From: Escherichia coli
GTDB taxonomy: Bacteria; Pseudomonadota; Gammaproteobacteria; Enterobacterales; Enterobacteriaceae
DNA length: 64,000 bases
NCBI RefSeq assembly: GCF_030013205.1
Contig: NZ_CP122648.1
Strand: one strand, 5' to 3'
In this document: in pieces, positions 121 through 60,396 of the stretch
Position numbering within the stretch: the stretch's first letter is position 1
Layout: each line of letters begins with the position of its first letter
Position numbers and translations under genes: made by a program
The notes under the pieces: generated by a model
The model's input: only the letters and a program-made list of their open reading frames with translations
Database searches by the model: none
Told to the model about the DNA's origin: nothing

Positions 121-148
121 AAAAAGAAAAGGCGGCATTGCTGCCGCC
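121..148 (-). terminator. Rho-independent terminator downstream of mukB
   Basis: Hairpin GGCGGCAGCAATGCCGCC followed by TTTTCTTTTT on the minus strand, directly after the mukB stop. Confidence 0.6.
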
Positions 149-154
149 TTAAAC

Positions 155-3100: not shown

Positions 3101-4615
3101 CCCTTCGCGCAGCAGTTCGCGAGCGACATCCCACGCCTCGTTACGCGCCAGCGGGCCGTTGATTGCCACCACCAGCTGATAAGCCTGCTCAAACTGGCTG
3201 TGCGCGGTTTGCGCCATGCTCATTTTCTGCTCAAGAGAGAGCATTTTTTCAGTCGCTTCCAGCTCTTTCGCCTGGAAGGTTTCCAGCCATTCGGCGGCGC
3301 TGTCGGCGGTTAAGTCCGGCAGATGGCACAGTTCTTTGGCACGATTAAGCGCAGCAACCGCCTGGTTATACTGGATCGCGCGCGTTTGCTGGACGTCCAG
3401 CGCCTGCTGATAGTCAGCAAGCTGGCTTTTCAGCTCGTCCACTTCCAGTTCGGCAGCTTCCGCACGAGCCTCGTTCTCTTCCTGGCGTTCGATGGCTTCT
3501 GCCACCACTTCGTTTTGCTCTTCCAGACGGATCTGCAGCTCATCGAGATCCGCTTCGTAACGTTCGATCTTCTCCTGCTGACGCAGTGCGGTTTGCACCA
3601 GGTTCAGGTGATCGCTGGCCGCCTGATAATCTGCTTCCAGATCGCCTTCGGCACCGTTGTGCTCTGCCAGCTCACGCGCCATATCGACGTGTTTGTACTG
3701 CTCAGCCGCCAGTTGCTGACGCGAAGTGTGTAGCTCGCGACGAAATTCCAGGGCTTTGTCGAGATGGACACGGCGCTCGTTGGCGTGACGCATGTAGTCC
3801 GCCGCCACGTAGTTGGTGGCTTCGCTGATCAGATGCTTAAACAGGTCACGGTCCGACTGGGTGACACGAATCGCTTCCAGCGTCATGCGGTTTTCGCGCA
3901 GCGCCGCTTCCATGTCCTGGAACGCTTTCCGCACGCCGCTGTTTTCCGGCAACAGGTAGTCGCGCAGAGAGCGCGTAATGGCGCTGGAGATCCCGCCGTA
4001 CAGCGAAGCTTCGATCAGACGATAGAATTTGCTACGGTCAGACGCTGAGCGCAGACGACGCGCGATGATGCCCAGATCGAACATCAGCGAGTGGTAATCG
4101 GTAATGGAGTTGAACTGCTTAAACTGCACGCCTTCCATCGCCTCGAGCTTGTCTTTCAGCTCGTTCAGCGGCAGTACACGCGCCTGGCGTTCGTTGAGGG
4201 TTTCGGTCACCAGCTGCGTCGGCAGCACCGACATCGGCAGGCCCTGAATGGCAAACGGTTTGATATCGACTTTACGATCGCGTCCGGCAACCTGTTGCAA
4301 ACGCACACCGACCACCACACGCTGGTGGCGCGAGTTAATGGTGTCGAGCATCGAATAACAGACACCCGCTTTCAGCTTACCGTGCAGACCTTTATCGCGC
4401 GAACCGCTGGTGGCCCCGGCTTCCGTGGTGTTACGGAAATGCAGCAGGGTCAGGTCGGGGATCAGCGCCGTAACGAACGCCGCCATGGTGGTGGATTTAC
4501 CCGCCCCGTTACCGCCGGAGAGCGTCGTAACCAGCTCATCGAGGTCAAAAGTTCGGGCAAAAAAGCCGTTCCAGTTAATCAGCGTCAGTGAGCGAAATTT
4601 ACCGCGTTCAATCAT
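155..4615 (-). CDS. mukB: Chromosome partition protein MukB (SMC-like condensin ATPase), 1486 aa
   Basis: Full-length ORF; N-terminal Walker A (GGNGAGKST), long coiled coils, C-terminal DEAARLD motif; synteny with mukE/mukF. Confidence 0.97.
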
Positions 4616-5319
4616 TATTCTTCCTCTCCGCTATCTGGCTGACTCTCTTCGGTTTCATCGTTGAGTTGCAGATGATTTTCAATCGGCATTGCTTCGCCAT
4701 CACGAATCAGGCGACGCTGTGCTTCACGGGGATCGTCGCCAGCACGCACATCGGCTCCGAAGCGGAACACCGATTCGGTAATGCGGAACTTGCTGCTGTC
4801 GTGGCCCATAAACCACACCATACCCAAACGACGCAGACGGTTGAGCGAAGAACGTACTTTTTCCTGCAACTTCTGGCGGTCAACGTCTGAACCGGTTGAA
4901 CGGTTGTTCACCAGTTTCAGCAGTTTCGCTTCATCGGCCAGGGTGAGCAGTTCGTCGTACAGTTCCTGCTGGGTGAAAATCCCCTCGTTCGCCAGCCGTT
5001 CCGGGCTGAGATAGAGATAACAGAGGATTTTCCCGACCATCATATCCAGTTCCGACAAGACGGAACGAGGGATCAGCGTGGTGGAACGTGGGCGTAAATA
5101 GAAGAACCCTTCCGGTGCACGAATAAGCTCAACGTTATAACGCGCGTAAAACTCTTCCAGATATTCCTGAAAATCCATCAGGAATGCATGATTATCCAGT
5201 TCGTCGAGGCCAATATGGCGGCCTGAACGTAAGGCGCTATCCAGCGCCGGAAATAACGGATTCGCCAGCGCCTGCGCCAGCTTAACCGGCATCACTTGTT
5301 CAATATTTGTCGATGACAT
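4615..5319 (-). CDS. mukE: Condensin subunit MukE (kleisin-interacting)
   Basis: ORF extends to 5346; start at MSSTNIEQ (5319) gives ~234 aa and a ~20-bp overlap with the mukF end as recalled for K-12. Confidence 0.9.
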
Positions 5320-6622
5320 GCGCCTGTACCTTGGCTCCGTAATCATTAATCGGCTGCCATTTCGCTGGCAGTCCGGTGAAATCTGCTTGCGCTACGCCAA
5401 GACGTACCGCCTGATCAATAACAATGCGCGCAACGTCAAAGTGACGTGCACGCGGATACTGTGACAGATATTCGCGTACCACCAGACCAAGATCCAGCGG
5501 CACTTGTCTGGTTTTGTACACGGCGAGTTGTTCTTCGATGATCGCCGCCAACTGTTCGCGGATCTCGTTAAACTCTTCGTACTCCAGATCCTCAGGAAGT
5601 TCTCCTGTCACTTCTTCATCGCGCAGAGCCATCTCTTCGTCACGCATATCCAACAGACGATCGGCATTGGCATAAGTTAGCGCCCACGGCTCATCAAAAT
5701 AGGTTTGTACCGACTGACGTAACCGCTGAGCAAAGACGCGGTTTTTATCCATATCGATCGCAGTACGAATAAATTTGTGTACGTGGCGGTCGTAGCCAAT
5801 CCACAAATCGATGGATTGCTGGCCCCAGCTGATAATACGGTCAAGTTTGCTCTGCAGATCGAATACCAGACGATCGACAAAATGCAGATCGTCATGGGTC
5901 ATCGTCGCATCCTGAATGCGTAACAGGTTGGCCTGCAATTTATCGCCTGCCGCTTCCAGCGTATCCTGCAATTCACGCAGCGTGCCGGAAGTTTCTGAAA
6001 GCAACAATTCACAGCTGGAAATCGCCGCCCGCCAGTCTTTGTTCAACAACTGGGCGATATCATCCTTCACCTGCTGCTGCTGTTCATCCATCAGACGTTG
6101 CGTCAGGTCGATACTGTCGAAAATTTCTGCTACCGAATATTTCAGTGGCGCATAAACATTACGGTGCCAGTGAAATTCATCACCGCCCTCTTCGGCGGCA
6201 TCTGCTGCGCGTTTGAGCTCACCCGCCACAATCGACAATTGCATAGAAAGGCGCAGCGTAGAAAACTCGCGCTGACGAATGTAATAGTCAGTGATGCCAA
6301 TGCCGAGCGGCGTCAGACGGTAAATTGCGTTCCCTTCCGCCTGCTCGCTGGTAAAGCGGTTCAGCAGACGTTGACGCACCATGTCGTTGATCGCGTTGTT
6401 GGCGCGCACGCCGATGGTTTCGCTGGTTTGCTCAAACGCATCACTCACATGGCGGAATGCATCCACCAGCTCGCCTTCACTCATCTCACCATCCAGACGC
6501 TCGCCGTTCAGCGTGGCAACCGCCAGCAGAAAAGAGAGTCGGTCTACCGGCAGCGAGATGGAGAAGTCATTTTTTCTGGCCCAGGCAACCAGTTCGGGGA
6601 CTGTCTGGGAAAATTCACTCAT
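5300..6622 (-). CDS. mukF: Condensin kleisin subunit MukF, 440 aa
   Basis: Full-length ORF, operon position between cmoM and mukE. Confidence 0.95.
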
Positions 6623-19911: not shown

Positions 19912-20676
19912 TTACTTACCAGAGGCGATACGATCACGGATGTGTTGCGCACGCTCTGTTGATGGTGGGTGAGAGTCAAACATGGACTGGGTACGACCGC
20001 CATCCAGGCTGGCCAATTTTTCAAAGCTGCCAACCAGCCCCTGGGTGCTGATGCCACGTTTCTTCAACAGTTCAAAGGAGAAATCATCTGCTTCGGACTC
20101 TTTATCGCGGGAGTATTTAGCATTGATCGCGCCTTCTGCGATATCACCTAATTGTGAGCGAGAAAGCTGGGAAGCCACACCGCTGGTAGCGGAAATCGCA
20201 TCACGTGCGGCAACGATCGCATAAGAAGCTTTCATTTCAGCCAGCGAGTGACCCAACGCGACGTGGCCCAGTTCATGACCCAGAACGCCTTCAATTTCGT
20301 TGTCGTTCATCATGTCCATCAGGCCACTGTAGACACGAACACAGCCGTTCGCCATCGCCCATGCGTTGACGTCGCTGGTCATATAAACCTTATAGTTGAC
20401 CGGCGTGCCATTAATATTGTTACCCAATGCTTTGGCGATTTTTGCCAGACGTTTACCGTACTTGCTGGATTTACTTGCGACTTGATTGCCGCTGTCCATT
20501 TCGGCACAGCCCTGATTGGCAATCGCTTTTGCATCAGCATCGCTTAACGTTGCTGCTTTATAGGCATTTAAACCTGAGCTGATAGCCATATTGGTATCAA
20601 TACCGTGGGTATTTTGACACCCTGTCAGTAATGCTGCAGAAGCCGCAATCGCCAGCAGTAATTTAGTATTCTTCAT
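19912..20676 (-). CDS. ycaL: Lipoprotein metalloprotease YcaL (M48 family)
   Basis: Lipobox LLTGC and HELGH zinc motif; start taken at MKNTKLL. Confidence 0.9.
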   Translation of the reverse strand: MKNTKLLLAIAASAALLTGCQNTHGIDTNMAISSGLNAYKAATLSDADAKAIANQGCAEMDSGNQVASKSSKYGKRLAKIAKALGNNINGTPVNYKVYMTSDVNAWAMANGCVRVYSGLMDMMNDNEIEGVLGHELGHVALGHSLAEMKASYAIVAARDAISATSGVASQLSRSQLGDIAEGAINAKYSRDKESEADDFSFELLKKRGISTQGLVGSFEKLASLDGGRTQSMFDSHPPSTERAQHIRDRIASGK

Positions 20677-20789
20677 GTGAATCATCCGTTGATTAATCAT
20701 ATATAAATATTATGTATCAACAACTTACATTGACAAGCGACGCTACCATTAATCAAAATGACTCACAAGGTCCGAATAAATATCCTCCG

Positions 20790-21520
20790 GCATAGCCGGA
20801 GGTTTTTCAAATGCGCCTATAAGGCTCTCTTACCAGCCGCGCCCTAACAGGCGCACACGATCTGACATTTGCATCCAACTTCGTTACTTACGGCCCGTAA
20901 ACGGGCTGCCCGGATAGGGAATCGATAACTGCTCTCCCATTTTATCCTCTTCAAGCTGGTGCTTTATGTAATCCTGTATCTTCGCCGTGTTCTTACCCAC
21001 CGTATCGACGTAGTACCCTCTGCACCAGAACTCTCTGTTCCTGTATTTGAATTTCAAATCACCAAACTGCTCGTAAAGCATCAGACTGCTTTTCCCTTTC
21101 AGATATCCCATAAAGCCGGATACGCTCATTTTGGGCGGGATCTCCACAAGCATATGGATATGATCTGCACAGCATTCAGCTTCAAGAATCCGTACGCTTT
21201 TCCACTCACACAGCTTTCTCAAAATACTGCCTATTGCTCTACGCTTCTCTCTGTAGAACACTTGTCTTCGGTATTTTGGCGCAAAAACTATGTGATATTT
21301 ACAGTTCCATCGGGTGTGCGCTAAGCTCTTTTCGTTCCCCATTGGGACCCCCTTTTGATTTCTTGTTTGACACTTGCAGTTGCCAGACCGCAAGGTGTTT
21401 TAACAAATCAAAAGGGGTTTTAATAACTGGCTCAAAGCTGAAAGCTTTCCGGAACCCCCAGCCTAGCTGGGGGTTTTCTGTGCACAAAAAAAACGCCGAC
21501 AATGTGCCGACGTTTTGATA
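20790..21520 (-). mobile_element. IS200-type insertion sequence (IS200/IS605 family); boundaries approximate
   Basis: The ycaL-aroA spacer is ~880 bp and contains a Y1 transposase ORF with flanking hairpins (e.g. CCCCCAGCCTAGCTGGGGG at ~21463-21485); ends not mapped precisely. Confidence 0.6.
20884..21342 (-). CDS. tnpA: IS200 transposase TnpA (HuH/Y1 single-strand transposase), 152 aa
   Basis: MGNEKSLAHTRWNCKYHIVFAPKYRR...ADHIHML (HuH motif)...; near-identical to recalled IS200 TnpA. Confidence 0.9.
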   Translation of the reverse strand: MGNEKSLAHTRWNCKYHIVFAPKYRRQVFYREKRRAIGSILRKLCEWKSVRILEAECCADHIHMLVEIPPKMSVSGFMGYLKGKSSLMLYEQFGDLKFKYRNREFWCRGYYVDTVGKNTAKIQDYIKHQLEEDKMGEQLSIPYPGSPFTGRK

Positions 21521-21555: not shown

Positions 21556-22839
21556 TCAGGCTGCCTGGCTAATCCGCGCCAGCTGCTCGAAATAATCCGG
21601 AAATGTTTTGGCCGTACATTTGGGATCAAGAATCGTCACTGGTGTATCTGACAACGCCACCAGCGAGAAACACATCGCCATCCGGTGATCATTGTATGTC
21701 GCGATCTCGGCAAAGTTCAGTTTTTCCGGTGGAGTGATACGAATGTAATCGTGCCCCTCTTCTACTTCCGCACCAACTTTACGCAGTTCTGTTGCCATCG
21801 CAAACAGGCGATCGGTCTCTTTAACACGCCAGTTATAGATATTGCGCAGCGTGGTGGTGCCTTTTGCAAATAACGCCGCCGTGGCAATGGTCATCGCCGC
21901 ATCGGGAATATGGTTCATATCCATATCAATAGCGTTCAGTTCACCACGCGTGCAGGAAATATAATCGTCGCCCCAGCAAATAGTCGCGCCCATTTTTTCC
22001 AGCACATCAGCAAAGCGAATATCACCCTGCATACTGTTGCGTCCAATGCCGGTCACTTTTACAGTGCCGCCTCTGATTGCTGCTGCTGCCAGGAAGTAAG
22101 AAGCCGAAGATGCATCGCCTTCGACCAAATAAGTACCCGGAGACTGATAAGACTGCCCGCCTTTTACGACAAATTGTTGATAGTGCTGATTTTCAATTTC
22201 AACACCAAACGTCTTCATCAGATTGAGTGTGATGTCGATATAAGGTTTAGAAACCAGATCGCCTTTAATACGAATAACCGTATCTTCCGGCGCAAGAGGC
22301 GCAGTCATTAATAGTGCGGTGAGGAACTGGCTGGAAACGGAGCCATCAACGTCAACGTTGCCGCCAGTAAAGCTGCCCTGTAAACGCAATGGCGGATAAT
22401 TTTCTTGTTCCAGGTAAGTGATCTTCGCCCCGCCCAGGCGCAGCGCATCCACCAGATGACCAATCGGGCGCTCTTTCATACGCGGCTCACCAGTCAGCAC
22501 AATATCATTGCTACCCAGACAAAGAGCTGCCGCCAGCGGGCGCATTGCCGTTCCGGCGTTTCCGAGGAACAACTCCAGGGCACCTTCTGCGTGTAATGGA
22601 CCGCCGTTACCGATAATTTCGCAACGCGTACGATCAGCTGAAAGCGTATAGCTTACCCCTAACGCTGCTAATGCATTCAGCATATGGCGCACGTCATCGC
22701 TATCCAGCAGATTGGTTAATACTGTTTTGCCGTGTGCTAATGCCGCCAGCAATAAAGCGCGGTTAGAAACGCTCTTGGAACCGGGCAGATTAATAGTGCC
22801 ATCGACACGAGCGATGGGTTGTAACGTCAGGGATTCCAT
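21556..22839 (-). CDS. aroA: 3-phosphoshikimate 1-carboxyvinyltransferase (EPSP synthase), 427 aa
   Basis: [23 protein letters not shown]... canonical AroA. Confidence 0.98.
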
Positions 22840-22860
22840 GAACTCAACTCTCTACAACAG

Positions 22861-22890
22861 AAATAAAAACCCCACAGGCTGGCTGTGGGG
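22861..22890 (-). terminator. serC-aroA intercistronic hairpin with T-run (attenuator/partial terminator)
   Basis: CCCCACAGCC-AGC-CTGTGGGG followed by TTTTTATTT on the minus strand, between the serC stop and aroA start. Confidence 0.55.
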
Positions 22891-22909
22891 ATTAAGCAAA
22901 ATTTCGGCA

Positions 22910-23998
22910 TTAGCCGTGACGGCGTTCGAACTCAATCATGAAGTCTGTCAGCGCTTTAACGCCTTCCAGTGGCATGGCGTTATAAATGGACGCACGCATT
23001 CCGCCGACCACACGGTGACCTTTCAGTGCATGAAGGCCAGCAGCAAAAGACTCTTCAAGGAACAATTTGTCAAGCGCACTGTCCGCCAACTGGAACGGCA
23101 CGTTCATCCGCGAACGGTTAGCTTTCGCCACGTCATTGCGGTAGAAATCGCTGTTATCAATCACCCCATACAGCAGTTCTGCTTTTTGCTGATTGATTTT
23201 ATCCATTTCAGCTACACCGCCGTTCGCTTTCAGCCATTTAAAGACCAGACCAGACAGATACCAGGCAAATGTCGGCGGCGTGTTAAACATGGAGCCGTTA
23301 TCGTTGAGGATGGAATAATCCAGAATCGACGGACACGCGATATTCGCTTTGCCCAGCAAATCTTCACGAACGATGACGATTGTCAGGCCTGCCGGGCCGA
23401 TATTTTTCTGCGCGCCAGCGTAAATCACGCCATAACGGCTGACGTCAATCGGACGGGAAAGAATGGTTGAAGAGAAGTCGGCGGCGACCACCACATCTTT
23501 GCCGAAGTCTGGCGTTTCGTCGATGGCGATACCGTCGATAGTTTCATTCGGGCAATAATGCATATAAGCAGCATTATCAGAGAGTTGCCATTCACGCATT
23601 GGTTTAACCGCGCGCAGACCATCAACAGTCACTTTGGCGTCAAAGACATTAGGCGTGCAGTATTTTTTCGCTTCTTTAATGGCACTTGCCGCCCAGTAAC
23701 CGGCATCAACATAATCTGCAGTGGTTTTATCACCGAGAATATTCAGCGGAACAGCAGCAAACTGACCGCGACCGCCGCCATGGCAGAACAATACCTTGTA
23801 GTTGGAGGGGACATTAAGAAGATCGCGAAAATCCTTCTCGGCTTCCTCTGCAACCTGAATGAACTCTTTGCCACGGTGACTCACTTCCATCACCGACGTA
23901 CCAAGACCGTTCCAGTCGCGCAGTTCCTGTTGAGCCTGTTTAAGCACCTCTGCCGGTAGCATTGCCGGACCAGAACTAAAATTGAAGATTTGAGCCAT
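22910..23998 (-). CDS. serC: Phosphoserine aminotransferase, 362 aa
   Basis: [15 protein letters not shown]... canonical SerC. Confidence 0.98.
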
Positions 23999-24196
23999 TT
24001 CCCCTCACCACGTTGCGTTGCTATTAACCCGCGGTCAATCGATTGCGACCACAGGTAATACATTATTCCTGTGGCTATCGGTTTTATCATTCAGTGACAC
24101 ACATCGCAATGAGTAAAACCGTTGAGGGCAAAAATGTGGCTTGCATCACACAAAAGAATCTCTCGGATTATTAGCAAAAAGCCGATGTTTTTACTG

Positions 24197-60367: not shown

Positions 60368-60396
60368 GCCCACAGCATAGAAGCTGTGGGCTTTTT
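60368..60396. terminator. Bidirectional hairpin terminator between the hok-like locus and serS
   Basis: GCCCACAGC-ATAGAA-GCTGTGGGC with T-runs on both strands. Confidence 0.55.

Follow-up and report, generated by a model that had tools for sequence, protein, structure and literature searches.

The closest described system is the serC (pdxF)-aroA operon of Escherichia coli K-12 itself. This operon was reportedly defined by Duncan and Coggins in 1986. Man, Pease and Winkler are said to have found in 1997 that single-gene mRNAs make up 80-90% of serC transcripts, and reportedly regarded Rho-independent termination between serC and aroA as their likely origin. Our full-text literature search on a serC/aroA terminator or attenuator, whose coverage lay outside the 1986 and 1997 originals, returned no paper describing the site. 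Partial terminators inside operons have been described in other organisms. In cellulolytic Clostridia they set the gene ratios of ABC-importer operons (PMC9045158), and they are present in 38% of Methanococcus maripaludis operons (PMC10450193).

Here, we describe the hairpin between serC and aroA in an E. coli window (the whole stretch of DNA that was analysed, 64,000 nucleotides). The serC-aroA spacer of the window is base-for-base the same as K-12 MG1655 NC_000913.3 958742-958811. Therefore, experiments with K-12 apply directly to it. The hairpin is already known: it is the same element as the published K-12 internal terminator, with an identical sequence. Very probably, it acts as a Rho-independent (intrinsic), constitutive terminator inside the operon, which is partly read through and sets the ratio of aroA to serC. 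As a discovery it has little weight, because it is a textbook-type internal terminator in a well-studied operon and its 3' end is in published maps. Our additions are the breadth of its conservation (81 loci; the best 80 of 259 relatives plus the E. coli record L001), the compensatory changes in its stem, and the better conservation of the internal terminator than of the operon-end one. The site is a clean, well-conserved example of one promoter serving two pathways at different levels, with SerC leading to serine and vitamin B6 and AroA to aromatic compounds.

The serC-aroA operon and its spacer hairpin

The window is E. coli DNA with the gene order ycaO, ycaP, serC, aroA, (IS200C), ycaL and cmk. 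The coordinates of the features are given in Table 1. In the preliminary description, serC and aroA were named as the flanking genes, and the profile matches in Table 1 bear out both names; the serC label is also carried by the annotation of matching E. coli records. The same description placed a GC-rich perfect hairpin and a T-run on the coding strand of a 70-bp spacer. Exactly 70 nt separate the two genes on the minus (coding) strand, and positions 22861-22890 cover the stem-loop and the T-run exactly.

Table 1. Features of the serC-aroA region and other sites in the window. Mean pairwise identities are from the comparative survey.
Feature	Position in window	Strand	Mean pairwise identity	Remarks
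Promoter-like site ATGATA-17-AATAAT	24062..24090	-		Candidate operon promoter upstream of serC; consensus match only, 9/12
serC (phosphoserine/phosphohydroxythreonine aminotransferase)	22910..23998	-		First operon gene, 362 aa; NCBIfam NF003764, E 7e-167
serC stop codon TAA	22912..22910	-		
Upstream linker TGCCGAAATTTTGCTTAAT	22891..22909	-	0.38	19 nt, serC stop to stem
Hairpin 5' arm CCCCACAG	22883..22890	-	0.81	Alignment columns 26-33 inclusive
Loop CCAGC	22878..22882	-	0.39	5 nt
Hairpin 3' arm CTGTGGGG	22870..22877	-	0.87	
T-run (U-tract, T-tail) TTTTTATTT	22861..22869	-	0.79	Starts at the first base past the stem
Segment with the aroA ribosome-binding region	22860..22840	-		21 nt
aroA translation-initiation block TAGAGAGTTGAGTTC	22840..22854	-		Consensus TGAGAGTTGAGTTTC; conserved (ribosome-binding block, identity 0.77), abuts the ATG
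aroA ribosome-binding block			0.77	
aroA start codon ATG	22839	-		
aroA (EPSP synthase)	21556..22839	-		Second operon gene, 427 aa; NCBIfam TIGR01356, E 3e-139
Operon-end terminator 3' of aroA	21486..21513	-		ACGTCGGCA-CAT-TGTCGGCGT, then 8 T
Fourfold-degenerate sites, flanking genes			0.46-0.52	
IS200C copy	20775-21485	-		711 bp
IS200C tnpA ORF	within 21393..20884			
Rfam STnc490 match	21475..21352			In the IS200C region, 146 bits
Hairpin CCTCCGGCATAGCCGGAGG at the IS200C right end	20784-20802			Terminator-like on both strands
ycaL/loiP ORF	19912-20700	-		262 aa, intact
Other strict terminator site	31324-31347	+		
Other strict terminator site	60368-60391	-		
Other strict terminator site	129-150	-		

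An intrinsic terminator has a G+C-rich stem-loop (stem of about 5-14 bp, loop of 3-8 nt) on the transcribed strand and a U-rich tract of about 7-9 nt immediately 3' of the stem. Both are present in the spacer. The stem-loop (22890..22870) has a perfect stem of 8 bp with six G-C pairs and a ΔG of -13.4 kcal/mol, and the U-tract that follows, UUUUUAUUU, contains eight U in nine positions. The fold of the whole spacer has a z value of -2.2 against shuffles. In the context of the upstream RNA, the probability of the terminator stem is 0.97-0.99. We scanned the 64-kb window with strict criteria, namely a perfect 8-bp stem with at least six G/C, a loop of 3-8 and at least seven T in the next nine bases. 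Four distinct sites were observed, as compared with a mean of 0.01 expected from 100 dinucleotide-preserving shuffles. Thus, the serC-aroA site is not a chance match. The three other strict sites are listed in Table 1.

Two further structures were considered and rejected. Bidirectional termination was rejected because the stem is followed by ATTAAGCAA when read on the plus strand, and the terminator consensus scan reported the serC-aroA site on the minus strand only. An outer helix, GCUUAAU/GUUGAGU, appears in the minimum free energy fold of the single sequence. It was rejected because it is weak and rich in G-U pairs and its 5' half is unconserved; it is also missing from the consensus fold.

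The candidate operon promoter lies about 57 nt before the serC ATG, at a position that we take to agree with the published P-serC. In the serC-aroA spacer, the consensus scan found no promoter-like site, and an aroA promoter within the spacer was rejected because a consensus match is absent. Therefore, aroA mRNA should be a fixed fraction of serC mRNA. Within the conserved block that abuts the aroA start codon, GAGAG is probably the Shine-Dalgarno sequence of aroA. Cotranscription of aroA with serC has been reported, and targeting of serC by GcvB lowers both the serC and the aroA mRNAs (PMC11878033).

Downstream of the operon, the window carries an IS200C copy between aroA and ycaL in the orientation of the operon; K-12 is without it. 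Its insertion point directly follows the 8-T run of the aroA terminator, with GGCGTTTTTTTT and GTGCACAG... on the two sides of the junction. At its right end, just before the terminal ATATTTATT, the element has a hairpin of its own (Table 1). The LoiP profile matched the ycaL/loiP ORF over positions 2-246 of 247, and in CFSAN018748, the public record that matches best, ycaL is annotated as a pseudogene with a frameshift.

Transcript 3' ends at the spacer hairpin

The preliminary description had looked to 3'-end profiles for transcripts ending at this site. Such ends are found in published K-12 maps (TRS, based on RNAtag-seq and Term-seq; PMC10687069). A plus-strand 3' terminus at 958782-958793 is labelled serC and classified as "Alternative primary in TU". 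One listing puts the peak of this terminus at 958784 and two put it at 958786, with corrected p values from 1e-15 to 1e-52, and one listing prints the hairpin of the serC-aroA spacer itself (PMC10687069). When coordinates are mapped from the K-12 serC end at 958741, the terminus corresponds to 22869..22858 of the window and the peak to 22867/22865, which are U 3-5 of the tract. Thus, the published K-12 termini place the in vivo 3' ends in the U-tract, as is expected of an intrinsic terminator.

The strength of the stop is given by the TRS stop statistic, which is 1 minus the local read-through; it is a ratio of local read counts and is not calibrated as a termination efficiency (PMC10687069). 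At the serC terminus, this statistic is 0.82, 0.84 and 0.97 in listings that are not a controlled comparison (PMC10687069). The "Primary aroA" 3' terminus of K-12, at 960160-960169, has a stop statistic of 0.98-1.0 (PMC10687069). The range of 0.82-0.97 at serC against 0.98-1.0 at aroA agrees with a first stop that is strong but leaks and a second that is tight.

The 3'-end catalogues disagree on K-12 958782-958793: three TRS listings (PMC10687069) contain the site and Adams et al. 2021 does not. Their curated Term-seq list (supplementary file 1, three conditions) has no serC or aroA 3' end. This list is not exhaustive, since it is also without entries for aroA and pflB, and rpsA is missing from file 1. 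Therefore, we regard absence of the serC site from one catalogue as weak evidence. The Rho-dependent termination regions in the same work (supplementary file 2) have no serC or aroA entry, which agrees weakly with Rho independence. The supplements of TERMITe 2025 and SMRT-Cappable-seq 2018 contain no occurrence of the serC-aroA site, and PMC10667835 mentions neither serC nor aroA. Among the published 3'-end data sets examined, PMC10687069 alone lists the site. It should be mentioned that 3'-end mapping alone cannot separate termination from processing and trimming back to a hairpin. We infer both that the U-tract ends originate from termination, not processing, and the size of the terminated fraction.

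Conservation of the hairpin in E. coli and other Enterobacteriaceae

Within E. coli, a 601-nt junction query matched 5425 of 5426 complete genomes at 95-100% identity. In the variants sampled, changes were located in the upstream linker or the flanking genes and never in the stem or the T-run. The spacer is interrupted in about 3 of the 5425 genomes. In E. coli P31_YH1_02.21 (L083), two IS200C copies are present, at 3560-4270 and 5648-6358 of that locus. One directly follows the T-run of the internal serC-aroA terminator (after GGGGTTTTTATT), and the other directly follows the aroA terminator. Thus, IS200C has inserted more than once at a position just 3' of a terminator T-run. The first copy puts 0.7 kb between aroA and its only known promoter, and this raises the question of aroA expression in that strain. 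In E. coli FXCREC035 (L084, about 3846-4920), ISApl1 of the IS30 family is inserted in the spacer just after TTTTTATTTCTG, with CTG on either side; the terminator is intact and aroA is displaced by about 1.1 kb.

For a wider comparison, we surveyed species-representative genomes. The best 80 of 259 relatives, all of them Enterobacteriaceae, and the E. coli record L001 gave 81 loci. In these 80 relatives, SerC shares 84-99% identity with the query. Among the genera are Escherichia, Salmonella, Citrobacter, Enterobacter, Klebsiella relatives, Kosakonia, Kluyvera and Raoultella, and further Cedecea, Buttiauxella, Siccibacter, Atlantibacter and Mangrovibacter. In all 81 loci (best 80 of 259 plus L001), aroA directly follows serC, the spacer is 64-82 nt (median 70), and a G+C-rich hairpin with a T-run is present at the same relative position. 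The strict finder detected this hairpin in 80 of the 81 loci. In the remaining locus, L044, the hairpin has a one-base bulge and was recognized by eye; the strict-finder call there is a spurious weak hairpin and was excluded from the ranges. Across the surveyed loci, the stem is 7-11 bp long, and the loop varies in sequence and in length (3-7 nt) between species. The ΔG of the strict-finder hairpins is -11.7 to -20.9 kcal/mol (median -15.2). The distance from the serC stop codon to the stem is 14-21 nt in the 81 loci, and that from the stem end to the aroA ATG is 27-39 nt with the L044 mis-call excluded. The tail has at least seven T in nine bases in 72 of the 81 loci (best 80 of 259 plus L001). 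The longest uninterrupted T-run is five in the window and at most five in 76 of the 81.

We then asked how the stem is kept in MAFFT alignment A1 of these loci (best 80 of 259 plus L001). Standard pairs make up 99.2% of the stem cells, and compensatory changes are present in five of the eight stem pairs (43 cells). None of 500 shuffles reached any of the observed pairing measures. When the 3' partner was slid by 1-3 columns, only 43-63% of cells could pair. RNAalifold predicted the terminator helix and no other helix in the spacer. As shown in Table 1, both arms, the T-tail and the aroA ribosome-binding block are conserved. In contrast, the loop and the upstream linker (0.39 and 0.38) change at the neutral level or are less conserved than the fourfold-degenerate sites of the flanking genes (0.46-0.52). 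This pattern across the segments shows that the pairing, the T-run and the aroA initiation region are under selection, whereas the remaining spacer is not. Thus, the structure is kept by selection, a property that is additional to, and not part of, the definition of an intrinsic terminator.

The terminator at the end of the operon behaves differently. Within 200 nt after aroA, a terminator-like site was found in 42 of 78 loci (among the best 80 of 259 relatives). These sites lie at variable distances (4-134 nt) and their T-runs are often weak. The comparison of the internal terminator (81/81) with the operon-end one (42/78) hints at stronger selection on the ratio-setting site.

Proposed mechanism, rival readings and known systems

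We propose the following mechanism. RNA polymerase would start upstream of serC and transcribe the GC-rich inverted repeat, and the nascent RNA would fold into the 8-bp hairpin directly before the U-rich tract. Most complexes would release the RNA on the U-tract and leave a serC-only message. A minority would read through, and the resulting serC-aroA cotranscript, which would end at the second terminator past aroA (21513..21486), would be the sole source of aroA mRNA. In other words, the hairpin site would hold the amount of aroA mRNA at a constant proportion of that of serC mRNA, and the aroA message would be scarcer than that of serC. Because no sensing element is present, the terminator is expected to act constitutively.

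The preliminary description had called the hairpin an attenuator that sets the ratio of aroA to serC expression. The ratio-setting part stands for a constitutive partial terminator, on the K-12 3' ends, the conservation and the covariation. A metabolite-responsive switch is not supported, as neither a sensing element nor an antiterminator was found. Such a switch, in which a metabolite, a protein or a leader peptide would control termination via an antiterminator so that aroA responds independently of serC, is improbable. The terminator does lie directly before a biosynthetic gene, like the trp, phe and pyrBI attenuators, and the spread of the stop statistic from 0.82 to 0.97 between listings might reflect growth conditions. 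However, an attenuator needs an antiterminator structure that is mutually exclusive with the terminator, and the consensus fold and the stem probabilities gave none. The median ensemble probability of the terminator stem, computed with 60-200 nt of upstream RNA, is 0.98-0.99 in 80 species (best 80 of 259), and no recurrent competitor of the stem was found in them. RNAalifold gave no second conserved helix, and the 19 nt upstream of the stem are unconserved (identity 0.38). An attenuator also needs a sensing element, and a leader ORF, an aptamer or a repeated protein-binding motif was not found in the spacer. No Rfam family matched the spacer at E values up to 1. The 70 nt contain no ATG-initiated ORF, and no leader ORF that has both a start codon and a ribosome-binding site. 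Moreover, the RNA upstream is serC coding sequence under ribosomes. A ribosome-gated leak would modify the constitutive terminator and not replace it. It is rather unlikely that a ribosome finishing serC partly blocks folding of the hairpin, and there is a correspondingly small chance that read-through into aroA depends on how closely translation follows transcription. The precedent is lambda tR2 in E. coli. There, a terminating ribosome interferes with folding of the hairpin, and the termination efficiency climbs gradually from approximately 0 to about 0.9 when the 8 nt between stop codon and stem are extended to about 27-30 nt (PMC4824070). At intermediate distances the sequence context matters: two contexts with spacings of 18 and 17 nt gave efficiencies of about 0.8 and about 0.12, respectively (PMC4824070). 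For serC the spacing is 19 nt, with a range of 14-21 nt over all 81 loci (best 80 of 259 plus L001), which is inside this graded zone. However, the linker (14-21 nt) is held to length no more strictly than the segment from the stem end to the ATG (27-39 nt) in the same loci, and many of the terminators after aroA elsewhere (among the best 80 of 259) are 8-20 nt from the stop codon. Thus, the internal site is not exceptional in its short distance. If the leak were gated in this way, the supply of AroA would depend on how tightly translation of serC keeps up with its transcription and would, for example, drop when translation slows. The serC-aroA site naturally lends itself to testing how the distance of a ribosome affects a terminator.

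The remaining readings concern the RNA after its synthesis. It is very improbable that the cotranscript is cut between the genes, with the hairpin shielding the serC fragment from 3' exonucleases and the T-run being incidental. Terminator hairpins do stabilize upstream mRNA, and the origin of an end is invisible to 3'-end maps. However, a protective hairpin alone needs no T-run, and the T-run after the stem is conserved (0.79 against the neutral 0.46-0.52), with at least seven T of nine in 72 of the 81 loci (best 80 of 259 plus L001). The mapped ends, 3-5 nt into the U-tract, are also at the classic position for termination. That the 3' end of serC mRNA yields an Hfq-binding sRNA from its 3'UTR, with the hairpin and U-tail as the Hfq module, is extremely improbable. 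The element is conserved, and in enterobacteria many sRNAs are released by cleavage of mRNA 3' ends that close with an intrinsic terminator. The terminators of Hfq-binding sRNAs have seven or more T (PMC5558911). In contrast, the uninterrupted T-run is five here and at most five in 76 of the 81 loci (best 80 of 259 plus L001). Neither seven or more consecutive U nor a conserved 5' seed was found: the region 5' of the hairpin where the seed is expected is unconserved. The spacer has no Rfam sRNA match.

The constitutive, partly read-through terminator can be compared with three kinds of known system. The K-12 serC (pdxF)-aroA Rho-independent terminator is the same element; the 70-nt spacer is identical and the K-12 3' termini lie on its U-tract. 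The element itself shows no difference from K-12, and the window strain adds IS200C after the aroA terminator, where K-12 has none. The partial terminators of Clostridia and Methanococcus resemble the serC-aroA site in lying between cotranscribed genes and lowering distal relative to proximal expression without a dedicated sensor. They differ in organisms and genes, and serC and aroA encode enzymes of separate pathways (serine and pyridoxal phosphate versus chorismate), not subunits that need a fixed stoichiometry. Like the leader attenuators trpL, pheL and pyrBI, the serC-aroA site is an intrinsic terminator upstream of a biosynthetic gene that controls the number of polymerases reaching the gene. 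Unlike them, it lacks a leader peptide containing regulatory codons, an antiterminator helix and any site for a ligand or protein, and the RNA upstream of its hairpin is the end of a full-length enzyme gene.
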